64,000 nt of DNA, taken from assembly GCA_964464605.1 (NCBI GenBank), contig CAYXJN010000006.1, positions 124,001-188,000 on the forward strand, read 5' to 3'. Positions 9,001 to 12,000 of this stretch are shown here, piece by piece. Position 1 is the stretch's first letter. Every line of letters begins with the position of its first letter. Source of the DNA: an uncultured Ignavibacteriales bacterium. GTDB taxonomy: Bacteria > Zixibacteria > MSB-5A5 > GN15 > FEB-12. A program made the position numbers.

Positions 9001-12000
9001 TTTCGCTTTAGCCTTCGCGATAAAAGTCCCGCTCTTTCCATTACATACCTGGCTGCCGGATGCGCACGTGGAAGCCCCTACCGCCGGTTCGGTGATTTTG
9101 GCCGGTGTGCTTTTGAAGATGGGAACGTACGGCTTTATCCGTATCTGTATGCCGATGTTTCCGGATGCGACCGTCGCGTTCATGCCGTGGATTGCGGTCT
9201 TATCCGTTATCGCGATTATCTATGGCGCGCTCGTTGCGATGGTGCAGAAGGATGTTAAATCCCTCGTCGCCTTTTCATCCGTTTCACATATGGGTTTTGT
9301 CATGCTCGGTCTGTTCGCGTTCAACATGCAAGGGATGCAAGGCGCGATTTTGCAGATGATCAACCACGGCGTTTCAACCGGCGCGTTGTTCTTGTTGGTC
9401 GGAATGATTTATGACCGCCGCCACACGCGTATGATCGATCAATTCGGCGGCATTGCCAATGTCATGCCGATTTACGCGACCTTTTTCCTGATTGTCACGC
9501 TTTCCTCGATCGGCTTGCCGCTTACTAACGGGTTTGTCGGCGAGTTTTTGATTTTGTTAGGCGCGTTCAAAACCAATATGTGGTACGGCGCTTTAGCCGC
9601 GACCGGTGTTATTCTTTCGGCGGCTTACATGCTCTGGATGTTTCAGCGGGTGATTTTCGGTAAAGTGACGAACCCTGAAAATGAAAAACTGCTCGATATC
9701 AACTGGCGGGAAAAAGTCATTCTTATACCGCTCATTGTGTTGATTTTCTGGATCGGTATTTATCCTAAACCGTTCTTTGACCGTATCGAACCGGCTGCTC
9801 AGCGCGCCTTGACCGAAGTCGGTCAGGCGGCCTCGGTTGATATCAATGATCAGTTCGAGATTACCAAAAAGGGTACGCTCACCCAAACGGATACGGAAGA
9901 GGCCGGCAAATGAGCGCGGAACTGATTATCTATACCAAAACCGGCTGTCCGTATTGTGCGGCGGCAAAAAAGCATTACACGAATTTAGGAAGAACGTTTA
10001 CGGAAATTAATATCACCGAGAACCCGTCGGAGAAAGCGAACCTGCTCAAACTGAGTGAAGGAATGAGCATGGTACCGGTTATCGTCGATAACGGCCAGGT
10101 GCAGCTTGGCTTCGGCGGCGGGTGAGGGTTTTGATAAAAGACGCGGCGGTCGTCGCGTGAGGAACTAAGAAAAGCGAAATGGATTATTCATTAGCCGCAT
10201 TTAACTGGAGCCTGATCGCTCCTGAAATCGTACTTGCCGTATTCGCCTCGGTGATTTTCATCTGGGCGGCGCGCCCGTTTATGTACAAATGGGGCGTCGA
10301 TATTGCATTAGTCGGTTTGCTGACTTCGCTCGGTTTTGCCATTAGCCAATGGAATTTCGGCGGCACCGGTTTCTACAATATGGTGCTGGTAGACAACTTC
10401 GCGGCGGCATTTCGGATTCTGAGTATTATCACGTCGATTTTGGCGGTGATGATGAGTTACCGGTTCCTGCAGGTGAAGGGGATAGACCGTCCGGAATTTT
10501 TCGGGCTGATGCTCATTGCGACGCTCGGGATGCTCGTGATGGTCAGCAGCAGTGATTTGATTGTTATGTTCCTCGGGCTTGAAATCATGTCGGTTCCGTT
10601 ATACGTCTTGGCCGGGTTTGCCCGCCGTTCGCTCGCCTCAAATGAAGCCGGTATCAAATACTTTATTATGGGAGCGTTTGCTTCGGCCTTTTTGCTTATG
10701 GGAATTGCCTGCGTTTTCGGTGCAACCGGCAGTACCGACTTAAAAGTGGTTTTGAGCAGAGCGTTATTTATGGCGATGTCAGCTACGCCAGAGAATCCGA
10801 GCCTCTTGGCCTATCTCATAGCCGGTGTGGCGTTGATATTGGTCGGCTTTGGATTCAAAATTGCCGCTGTACCGTTTCATACCTGGGTGCCGGATGTGTA
10901 TCAGGGCGCACCGACACCGATTACGGCCTTTTTCTCTGTCGGTCCAAAAGCGGCCGCCTTTGCCGTGTTGCTTCGCATTTTCACGTTTGGTTACACAAAT
11001 ATTCCGGTTATCGCTCAGGCGTTTTGGATACTCGCCGTGTTAACGATGTCGATCGGTAACATTCTCGCACTGAGGCAAAGCAATGTGAAGCGAATGCTTG
11101 CCTATTCATCGATTGCCCATGCCGGCTATATCCTCGTTGCCATGACCGCCGGAGGGCCGCAGGCGGTCTCCTCAGCGCTCTTTTATTTAGTGGCCTACGC
11201 GATGTTCAACCTCGGCGCGTTCGCGATTCTGGTGCTCTTAGAAACGCGCACAGGCTGTAAATCGGAGTTCTCCGAGTTACGCGGCATGGCGGCATCGCAT
11301 CCGTGGCTGGCCGCACTGCTTGCGTTGTTCATGTTCGGCCTGTCCGGTTTTCCGCCCTTGGTTGGATTCTTTGGAAAATTCTATGTCTTCAGCGCCGCGG
11401 TGCAGAACGGTTTTATCTGGCTCACGGTCATCGGCGTACTGAACTCCTTTGTCTCTGTCTATTATTACTTACGCGTTGTCAAAGCCTGTTATTTCGAGAA
11501 GGCAGAAGGGTACTTCCCGCCGGTCACGGTCAATCCCTTTATGGCGATCGTGCTGGTTATTACCGCCGTCGGAACGCTCGCGTGGGGGATATTCCCGCAG
11601 CAGTTGCTCGATTTTTCACAACAGGCTATTTTCGCTCTACGCTAAAATGATTCCATCACCGATTTTGTATATGCATGTGAAAGGTTAGGCATGGTGCCTG
11701 TAGAACCGGTTTCCGTATCAGTGTGGATTTGGGTAAGTTTTACCGTCTTCATCCTTTTGCTCTTGCTGGTCGATTTAGGGTTGTTCCAACGCAACGCGCA
11801 CGCGGTTTCCGTAAAAGAATCTCTGGCCTGGACATTTGTTTGGGTTGTTCTCGCCTGTGGATTCGGCGGCATTATGTACTGGTGGCACGGTTACCACGCC
11901 GCGCTTGAGTTCTTTACCGGGTATATCATAGAGTACTCTCTCAGTGTCGATAATCTGTTCATTTTCATTCTGATTTTTACCTATTTCAAAGTTCCGGACA

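Follow-up and report, generated by a model that had tools for sequence, protein, structure and literature searches.

A glutaredoxin-like gene with an in-frame TGA in the nuo operon of most Zixibacteria suggests a selenium-dependent helper of complex I

A glutaredoxin-like gene between nuoM and nuoN

The window, that is the whole stretch of 64,000 nucleotides that was analysed (contig CAYXJN010000006.1 of an uncultured bacterium of the Zixibacteria), carries the genes nuoF to nuoN of respiratory complex I, and nuoA to nuoE were found by Pfam matches directly upstream on the same contig (contig positions 112001-124000), so that the nuo operon is complete here from nuoA to nuoN (Table 1). A short gene coding for a glutaredoxin-like protein of the Uxx-star family is located between nuoM and nuoN. 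Its ATG start codon (9910-9912) overlaps the stop codon of nuoM (ATGA), and a spacer of 44 nt separates its own stop codon from the ATG of nuoN (10179). The CPYC motif of the protein occupies residues 13-16, and its C-terminal end reads GFGGG-U-GF when the in-frame TGA at codon 72 is translated as selenocysteine (Sec). An initial annotation of this DNA had described a 74-codon CPYC gene ending GFGGG-TGA-GF-stop between nuoM and nuoN, as the sequence confirms, and had given the spacer as 45 nt, which we corrected to the length measured here. Immediately 3' of a hairpin in the spacer and before nuoN, a Shine-Dalgarno-like GAGGA motif (10159-10163) is the putative ribosome-binding site of nuoN. 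A gene for a membrane protein of the TerC/Alx metal-homeostasis family was observed downstream of nuoN in the window.

Table 1. Features of the nuo region, in window positions.
Feature	Position	Strand	Evidence and remarks
nuoF	138-1478	+	Pfam match
nuoG	1482-3986	+	Pfam match
nuoH	3983-4981	+	Pfam match
nuoI	4999-5508	+	Pfam match
nuoJ	5505-6098	+	Pfam match
nuoK	6095-6397	+	Pfam match
nuoL	6400-8346	+	Pfam match; TIGR01974, 803 bits
nuoM, 521 aa	8348-9913	+	TIGR01972, 642.7 bits; TGA stop
Uxx-star glutaredoxin-like gene (predicted selenoprotein)	9910-10134	+	74 sense codons and stop; sequence, NF041212 match
In-frame TGA read as selenocysteine (U72)	10123-10125	+	Sequence; first-stop conservation in related loci
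True stop of the Uxx-star gene (TGA here)	10132-10134	+	Sequence; GGG TTT TGA follow 3' of TGA-72
Bacterial SECIS-like hairpin in the spacer before nuoN	10141-10158	+	7-bp stem 10141-10147/10152-10158, loop GGUC 10148-10151
nuoN, 488 aa	10179-11645	+	TIGR01770, 448.3 bits

The stretch was also recovered from independent sequencing runs. Contigs of run X17 cover positions 9836-10310 with zero differences, the TGA included, and a 282-kb contig of run X13 spans the stretch with the TGA. In the RNA runs X19 and X20, both from one sample, contigs covered short stretches of nuoM and of nuoN only, and none lay over the Uxx-star gene.

Membership of the Uxx-star family is well supported by the profile search, in which the 71-residue product ending before the TGA matched NF041212 at 96 bits against a cut-off of 66, reproducing the score given in the initial annotation. 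The protein shares with this family a length of about 70 residues, the glutaredoxin fold, a CxxC motif and a predicted Sec residue third from the end. It differs from the family in the fixed location of its clade, between nuoM and nuoN, and in that it misses the cut-offs of all three named families, Uxx-star 1 to 3 (NF041114, 71.5 vs 72; NF041211, 68.2 vs 100; NF047338, 69.3 vs 97). Since L053, which belongs to the same nuo clade but is more distant, passes the family 1 cut-off at 76.4, we place the clade at the edge of UXX-star family 1. These families are attributed to Haft & Tolstoy 2025 in a passage of a 2026 review, which in that passage gives no genomic context for them and no role beyond possible metal binding (PMC13188914).

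The AlphaFold model of the product (pLDDT 88.7) exhibited a glutaredoxin fold with the order beta-alpha-beta-alpha-beta-beta; because the chain stops right after beta-4, the product is predicted to lack the C-terminal helices of classical glutaredoxins. The best Foldseek matches were clostridial cGrx1/2, Grx3 and NrdH, with E values of about 1e-4 and TM scores of 0.7-0.8. The closest comparisons, cGrx1/cGrx2 (PDB 7c10, 4tr1) and NrdH-redoxin (1h75), gave TM scores of about 0.75-0.8 and 25-35% identity, and cGrx1 and NrdH are of about the same length as the window protein, whereas all of them are devoid of a C-terminal Sec tail and the gene studied here does not stand in a ribonucleotide reductase context. 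Residues C13, P14, V55, P56, G70 and U72 were invariant among 39 sequences, and one relative carries CPYS, so that its second thiol is missing.

Membership of other known classes is not supported. A classical glutathione-dependent glutaredoxin is contradicted by a GRX_bact score of 46.9 vs 90, by the end of the model after beta-4 and by the glutathione synthesis genes, as gshB, gshA and GCS2 were not found in this genome, rated 100% complete. The NrdH-redoxin profile (TIGR02194) gave 39.3 against a cut-off of 85.75, for a gene that lies in the nuo operon, and the YruB profile gave 50.6 against 88.55. A thioredoxin reductase is encoded in the genome (366.8 bits). The Uxx-star protein is the sole PF00462 match of the genome, a finding equally compatible with a general reductase of the cytoplasm and with a dedicated one. 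Fused forms were sought among longer proteins, and none of the 16 candidates reached E <= 1e-8, which is weak evidence on fusion.

The in-frame TGA and the hairpin behind it

We found that TGA-72 very probably codes for selenocysteine, as the initial annotation had proposed, and four lines of evidence support this reading well. First, the stop codon reached first was TGA in 104 of 104 distinct related loci, and in all of them exactly two codons, for Gly and then for Phe, Ile or Val, separate it from the second stop. Both codons show synonymous variation (GGA 47, GGC 20, GGT 18 and GGG 15 for the Gly codon; TTT 48 and TTC 40 at the following position), and the second stop is itself variable (TAA 65, TGA 20, TAG 19). 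No Cys-for-Sec variant occurred among the 48 sequences that were read in detail. Second, the NF041212 match rose to 104.1 bits with the read-through product and extended to its final three residues (residues 6-74 on positions 2-70 of the 70 of the profile). Third, the same genome contains tRNA-Sec (66.4 bits, anticodon tca), SelA (526 bits), SelB (320 bits) and SelD (395 bits), all four above their family cut-offs and all four already listed by the initial annotation; SelA was detected in 191 of the 201 sampled genomes of the phylum. The same annotation had reported that 4 of 45 relatives carry no TGA, which is probably an alignment artefact: five of the six rows marked as having no stop were fetched and all have the TGA, the sixth being the second row of a genome with a broken copy (G122).

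The fourth line is the hairpin with a GGUC loop that had been noticed after the stop codon, and which we located in the spacer (Table 1). Its loop starts 22 nt past the UGA; the loops of the relatives include G-U and are found mostly 16-23 nt past the UGA, the spacing range accepted for bacterial SECIS elements being the yardstick for this distance. When the helix was scored on 48 sequences, 79.9% of its cells were paired compared to 62.7% after shuffling, and the covariation score was 0.549 compared to 0.258 for the shuffled sequences, with none of 500 shuffles as high and controls with a slid helix at 0.13-0.30. Compensatory changes, which the initial annotation had inferred from fewer loci, were seen in 70 cells altered on both sides and affected six of the seven base pairs. 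The named helix was counted in this way because the MAFFT alignment shifts the hairpin in distant members; RNAalifold on this alignment of the 48 post-TGA stretches predicted no pairs. A stem of >=5 was present in 47 of 48 sequences and in 75.5% of mononucleotide shuffles, a per-sequence count that is uninformative. The presence of a covarying hairpin after the stop is well supported by these comparisons.

We are highly confident that a real selenoprotein gene is built into the nuo operon. The opposite reading takes TGA-72 as a genuine stop, so that the gene would yield a glutaredoxin-like protein of 71 residues and the hairpin would be an intercistronic RNA element ahead of nuoN with a part in processing, stability or attenuation. 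It agrees with a single-sequence fold no better than shuffles (z -1.29), with a search of positions 9900-10300 against Rfam in which E values up to 10 were allowed and only a chance lncRNA match came back, and with the so far predicted status of Sec insertion, but it is scarcely credible beside a first stop that is always TGA when the next uses all three codons, a Gly and a hydrophobic residue kept behind it through synonymous changes, a profile match that reaches the last residues and a complete set of Sec genes.

Distribution, position and losses of the gene

Among the 201 sampled genomes of the phylum, 139 gave a match, among them a different protein in G116 and a broken copy in G122, and the gene stands between nuoM and nuoN in about 138 of the 201, a wider conservation than had been claimed before. 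The best 30 loci showed this placement in 29 cases, the remaining one being cut off by a contig end. It was seen as well in 17 of 20 regions that are more distant and in 74 of the 80 loci that come from named records, and it is still retained where protein identity has fallen to about 35-45%. In 95 of 119 related loci, with start codons picked by rule, the stop codon of nuoM overlaps the start of the gene. Conservation inside the nuo operon, together with the start-stop overlap with nuoM, is the pattern by which we recognise a candidate accessory factor.

The gene is dispensable for complex I, and an obligatory subunit is counter-indicated. NuoN was detected in 201 of 201 genomes and the Uxx-star gene is absent from about 63; whole families (f6, f7, f9, f10, f14, f15 and f16) are devoid of it, and there nuoM abuts nuoN. 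Decayed remnants were found in place in three genomes (G126, G048 and G132), and the broken copy of G122 is frameshifted. A NuoM tree, for which the gene-less rows were chosen by hand and are not a random sample, required at least nine gains or losses of the gene, seven of them forced by strongly supported branches. These repeated natural losses allow gene-bearing genomes to be compared with gene-less ones as they stand.

In NuoM, the one subunit compared in this respect, no cysteine column separates gene-bearing from gene-less genomes. Nor was there any association at the family level with COX1 (heme-copper oxidase): families f6, f7, f10 and f14 have COX1 but no gene, and in f11, f12 and f17, where the gene is present, COX1 is rare or absent. 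As gene presence is untied to heme-copper oxidases, a simple oxygen-stress rationale is unsupported. Within family f1, COX1 was missing in 3 of 4 gene-less genomes vs 17 of 68 gene-bearing ones, small numbers drawn from related genomes.

Outside the phylum, none of the relatives among the loci examined is located in a nuo operon. In two Actinomycetota genomes an AhpC/TSA-Redoxin gene comes after the relative, which speaks for a general reductase character of the family; glycolytic genes are also near, and a relative from Binatia has yet another gene context. The 71-residue product also matches clusters of 72-residue glutaredoxins in Binatota, Actinomycetota, Acidobacteriota and Nitrospinota, including 'putative UXX-star selenoprotein family 1', matches that serve as leads only.

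A proposed role beside complex I

The Uxx-star family is known, and its link to the nuo operon was found in no paper searched, the family-defining work lying beyond that search; within the same reach, the literature, in agreement with the initial annotation, links no selenoprotein to bacterial complex I. The nuoM-coupled position in the complex I operon across the phylum gives the family its first concrete functional context. The interpretation given in the initial annotation is partly supported: the role that it assigned to the protein beside complex I, as a redox partner, an accessory subunit or a factor of assembly or repair, is a candidate one, to which gene position and translational coupling point.

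We favour, at about an even chance for the reading as a whole, a selenoprotein acting as a thiol/selenol reductase with a flexible Sec tail, recycled by thioredoxin reductase and having complex I as its client. Ribosomes finishing nuoM would restart at the overlapping ATG, and the hairpin in the spacer would recruit SelB and Sec-tRNA at UGA-72, so that Sec would be inserted and translation would terminate two codons on. The product would be a cytoplasmic 74-residue protein of the thioredoxin fold, with the CPYC dithiol as one redox element and, as the other, a selenol carried on a Gly-rich hinge (GGG-U-GF) that would exit the fold beside the active site. The tail selenolate might attack an oxidised client cysteine (disulfide, sulfenate or thiol adduct), the resulting Se-S bond might be resolved by Cys13 and next by Cys16, and the Cys13-Cys16 disulfide would then be re-reduced by thioredoxin reductase and not by glutathione. 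In most of the phylum, the transcript of complex I is expected to yield the protein along with NuoM, and complex I would for this reason be the preferred client. The protein would serve the maintenance, redox regulation or assembly of cysteine-bearing complex I subunits as a dispensable accessory factor and not as a core subunit.

NrdH-type proteins are reduced by thioredoxin reductase. In mammalian thioredoxin reductase, a flexible C-terminal Gly-Cys-Sec-Gly tail shuttles reducing equivalents from a buried dithiol to the client, and its SECIS lies past the stop codon. The window protein resembles it by the near-C-terminal Sec on a Gly-rich tail and by the SECIS-like element past the stop; in contrast, the mammalian enzyme is a flavoenzyme and the carrier here a 74-residue thioredoxin-fold protein with a hairpin of the bacterial type. 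As its tail contains no adjacent Cys, the partner in a selenenylsulfide would be a CPYC cysteine or the client itself. Mitochondrial glutaredoxin 2 is reported to act on complex I thiols, with glutathionylation of the 75-kDa subunit (PMC2529008). By analogy, the window protein may likewise be a glutaredoxin-fold enzyme serving reactive cysteines of complex I, whereas glutaredoxin 2 is glutathione-dependent, is no selenoprotein and is not encoded among the complex I genes, the window genome being one in which glutathione synthesis genes were not detected. If the link to complex I is true, the supply of selenium would affect how a phylum widespread in sediment and sludge conserves energy by respiration, a new class of accessory factor would be added to those of bacterial complex I, and a minimal thioredoxin-fold carrier would prove able to use a flexible tail with Sec near its C-terminus.

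The same observations could be explained by a true selenoprotein that is a general cytoplasmic disulfide or peroxide-pathway reductase, for which the strong and steady nuo transcript is a mere expression platform and complex I not a specific client. Such a passenger would be consistent with the single Glutaredoxin-family match of the genome, the AhpC/TSA-Redoxin and glycolytic neighbours of the Actinomycetota relatives, the different location of the Binatia relative, the repeated loss of the gene while nuo stays intact and the lack of a discriminating NuoM cysteine. We regard it as the less probable explanation, though one to be taken seriously, given that the insertion point between nuoM and nuoN and the start-stop overlap are kept across families whose NuoN are only about 44-50% identical, where one would expect a neutral passenger to have moved, or to have been lost more uniformly, and that all sampled genomes but G169 and G122 have a single match.

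A closer association than that of the helper favoured above, in which the protein is a stoichiometric, selenium-dependent supernumerary component docked on the cytoplasmic face of the membrane arm at NuoM/NuoN, its swinging selenol tail keeping critical cysteines reduced or gating the activity state, appears rather unlikely. Small non-core proteins of established association are known from bacterial complex I (Nqo15 and Nqo16 in Thermus, the extra subunits in Paracoccus), and NDUFA2 is a thioredoxin-fold subunit of the mitochondrial complex; to our knowledge, none of these is a selenoprotein. Their physical association with complex I is established, whereas that of the window protein is proposed from gene position and translational coupling. 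A complex prediction with the NuoM of the window and the 71-residue product returned 'no answer' (score 0.00 vs a mark of 0.34) and is no evidence either way. With such a component, respiratory complex I would have its first selenoprotein, and prokaryotes a counterpart to the relationship between mitochondrial glutaredoxin 2 and complex I.

Handling of metals or metalloids was also considered, in which the C-terminal selenol and the CxxC thiols would chelate a soft metal or carry selenium, sulfur or iron, the protein being a chaperone (e.g. for Fe-S or cofactor delivery in complex I assembly) or a detoxification factor and not a reductase. The three soft ligands C13, U72 and, but for the CPYS relative with its second thiol gone, C16 are conserved, and the TerC/Alx-family gene after nuoN in the window would suit this function. 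We judge it improbable: within the flanks of the loci examined no metal transporter or resistance gene is conserved alongside, CPYC/CPFC is the dithiol typical of glutaredoxins with redox activity, and redox enzymes give the best structural matches.

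Conserved position of grx in the nuo operon

The gene coding for the Uxx-star glutaredoxin-like selenoprotein (grx) was located in a complete nuo operon of 14 subunits, with nuoA-E just before the window (locus L173), and its ATG overlaps the nuoM stop as ATGA (9910-9913). The KefC-like CPA2 gene downstream sits in a genome without detected glutathione synthesis genes.

Features of the nuo operon around grx, in window coordinates
Feature	Position	Strand	Description
nuoF-L	138-8346	+	same operon
nuoM	8348-9913	+	upstream of grx; TIGR01972, 642.7 bits
grx	9910-10134	+	74 sense codons, ends ...VQLGFGGG-TGA-GF-stop
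In-frame TGA of grx	10123-10125	+	read through (strong reading)
Terminal stop of grx	10132-10134	+	a second TGA
Hairpin after grx stop	10141-10147 pairs 10152-10158		7-bp stem, GGUC loop starting 22 nt past UGA
nuoN	10179-11645	+	downstream of grx; TIGR01770, 448.3 bits
TerC/Alx-family membrane protein gene	11691-12662		after nuoN; 441.8 bits
KefC-like CPA2 K+ efflux gene	12739-14721		after TerC/Alx-family gene

The initial annotation had described a glutaredoxin-like gene with a TGA between nuoM and nuoN, an observation that was borne out and extended. The grx protein was matched (E <= 1e-5) in 139 of the 201 sampled genomes of the phylum, including a different protein in G116 and a frameshifted copy in G122. 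NuoM and NuoN homologues flanked the gene in 29/30 of the best loci (a contig end truncates the remaining one), in 17/20 regions picked as distant and in 74/80 loci of named records, where contig ends truncate 2 others. This placement was kept down to 35-45% identity of the grx protein and about 44-50% of NuoN. Overlap between the nuoM stop and the grx start was seen in 95/119 loci (start codons assigned by rule), and the grx-nuoN spacer is mostly 30-45 nt, just sufficient to hold the hairpin.

At L069 (G169:C1:931829-937011), grx and nuoN occur as a second copy that lacks an upstream NuoM and has a stretch of N over the grx start, explained probably by a gap in the assembly or by duplication. 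NuoN matches with one in-frame stop were found in G049, G123, G176 (TAG), G175, G164 and G074 (TAA), five of family f11 and G074 of f5; these matches may extend beyond the true start, into the longer grx-nuoN spacer of the family. At L066 (G134:C198, 2498-4300, minus strand), the nuoM frame continues without a stop into the grx frame, so that NuoM and Grx would be fused in frame through about 40 linker residues. Such a fusion would be odd if functional, since the C-terminus of NuoM faces the periplasm; a stop is present there in the sister genome G061, and the fusion could be a sequencing error.

Our search found no literature in which a bacterial nuo operon is linked to a selenoprotein or glutaredoxin gene, the two Haft papers lying outside that search. 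The family in one literature passage is, judged by its Pfam accession, Rnf/Nqr and not complex I. Among the papers searched, the term "UXX-star" is used in one, a 2026 review (PMC13188914), where the families are listed without genomic context. The Uxx-star family is already known and the conserved embedding in the nuo operon appears new, an earlier account in the Haft papers being possible.

The in-frame TGA and the post-stop hairpin

The selenocysteine reading of the in-frame TGA, already made in the initial annotation, is strong at the sequence level, with four independent lines (codons, hairpin, Sec machinery and profile) pointing to it. The TGA was the first stop, followed by exactly two codons, in 104/104 distinct related loci, which share ancestry, so that the codon counts are not independent trials. 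The first codon used all four glycine codons (GGA 47, GGC 20, GGT 18, GGG 15, others 4), the second was TTT (48) or TTC (40), the remainder coding for Ile, Val, Met or Trp, and the terminal stop was TAA (65), TGA (20) or TAG (19). Such synonymous drift behind an invariant TGA is expected if the TGA is translated. In the phylum search, 134/141 match rows were flagged with one TGA and 6 with none; five of these six were fetched and all carry it, their alignments having ended before the TGA. No Cys-for-Sec form was found in the 48 sequences read in detail. The genome contains tRNA-Sec (66.4 bits, anticodon tca), SelB (320 bits), SelA (526 bits) and SelD (395 bits), and the score of the NCBIfam Uxx-star profile NF041212 rose from 96 bits on the 71-residue product to 104.1 bits on the read-through product, with profile positions 2-70 of 70 matched; the window protein scores under the cut-off of each of the three named sub-families, falling half a bit short for family 1. 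An assembly slip is not the source of the TGA: contigs from another study (run X17) cover 9836-10310 with zero differences, and a 282-kb contig from a further study (run X13), which covers the entire stretch, has 5 differences but matches in the last grx codons.

The single-sequence fold of the hairpin region was unremarkable (64-nt stretch, MFE -15.6 kcal/mol, z -1.29; 24/200 shuffles fold as well), RNAalifold predicted no structure from a MAFFT alignment of 48 homologous stretches, and no Rfam match was found. When the named helix was counted on the same unfitted alignment, 79.9% of cells were paired vs 62.7% in shuffles, with a covariation score of 0.549 vs 0.258, reached by 0/500 shuffles; slid-partner controls gave only 0.13-0.30. 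Both-side changes occurred in 70 cells, spread over 6/7 pairs. The loop is GGUC in 20/48 sequences and holds G-U in the remaining ones, and the UGA-to-loop spacing is 16-23 nt in nearly all, the simple hairpin picker having taken the wrong hairpin in a few of the 48.

Repeated loss and relatives outside nuo operons

The grx gene is ancient yet dispensable. NuoN was present in 201/201 sampled genomes and SelA in 191/201, so that loss of complex I or of the Sec trait fails to explain the approximately 63 grx-less genomes. No grx match was found in families f6, f7, f9, f10, f14, f15 and f16, and nuoM directly abuts nuoN in 20 fetched grx-less regions (f7 and f15 lying outside those 20). In otherwise grx-positive families, remnants sit in place between nuoM and nuoN: the first ten and last 23 codons around an internal deletion, GFGGN-TGA-GF-stop included, in G126 (L164), ...AVGFGSS-TGA-GL-stop in G048 (L162) and the start only in G132 (L166). 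The frameshifted grx of G122 (L071) has the same position, and all four genomes still contain SelA. On a FastTree NuoM phylogeny of 98 hand-chosen sequences (78 with grx, 20 without), the distribution of grx implied 9 or more gain or loss events, of which 7 are imposed by branches with strong support. The simpler explanation, given one fixed insertion site, is that grx was lost repeatedly.

The non-nuo loci (4/80), all from outside the phylum, were labelled Actinomycetes, Thermoleophilia (two) and Binatia, and these relatives retain the GG-[GS]-U-G-x-stop tail and a post-stop hairpin; the Binatia one belongs to Uxx-star family 3 (119 bits). In two actinomycetotal loci, an AhpC/TSA-Redoxin gene directly follows the Uxx-star gene (L125 4250-4798, L146 4170-4799), with genes for triosephosphate isomerase and phosphoglycerate mutase on the upstream side and one for a GCS2 glutamate-cysteine ligase downstream. 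The AhpC/TSA-Redoxin neighbours fit a general family role as reductant of thiol-dependent partners. The different protein of G116 (L070, G116:C159, 2498-2737) is a glutaredoxin-like selenoprotein outside the nuo operon, with TGA first in the active-site motif (APG-U-VDC) and a YruB-family best profile (67.3 bits, below cut-off).

Predicted reductase activity and proposed link to complex I

Residues C13, P14, V55, P56, G70 and U72 were invariant in a 39-sequence alignment, with CPYC, CPFC or CPHC as active-site motif and CPYS in one sequence. The AlphaFold model (pLDDT 88.7) showed a glutaredoxin fold ending after strand beta-4, followed by the Gly-rich tail; the best solved structural matches were clostridial cGrx1/cGrx2, E. 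coli Grx3 and NrdH. The loop behind beta-4 borders the active site in glutaredoxins, and the selenol of U72, 3-5 residues further on and carried on a glycine hinge, is thus predicted to reach Cys13. In this assembly, rated 100% complete, gshB, gshA and GCS2 were not found and a thioredoxin reductase (366.8 bits) is present; the grx product is therefore not a classical glutathione-dependent glutaredoxin. NrdH is recycled by thioredoxin reductase, and by analogy we infer the same recycling for the grx protein.

We give about an even chance to a thiol/selenol reductase, recycled by thioredoxin reductase, whose mobile Sec tail would attack oxidised cysteines and which, made in step with NuoM, would be a dispensable accessory factor serving complex I. 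From the complex I partnership proposed in the initial annotation, the conserved gene position stood; the tie itself is a well-founded hypothesis with that position as its one basis. The main rival, a general reductase merely riding the nuo transcript, is somewhat unlikely, and is favoured by grx being the sole PF00462 match, and so the only glutaredoxin-family gene, of the genome, by the other gene contexts of the family elsewhere and by the repeated loss. The metal-handling role suggested for the Uxx-star family in the review (PMC13188914) seems improbable here, and plain termination at the TGA is scarcely credible.

As for a complex I or oxygen link, no NuoM cysteine column separates grx-bearing from grx-less lineages, and grx presence does not track heme-copper oxidases at family level. 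Within family f1, a COX1 match was missing in 3/4 grx-less genomes (G048, G103, G126) vs 17/68 with grx, a comparison of few, related genomes with no such association at family level.
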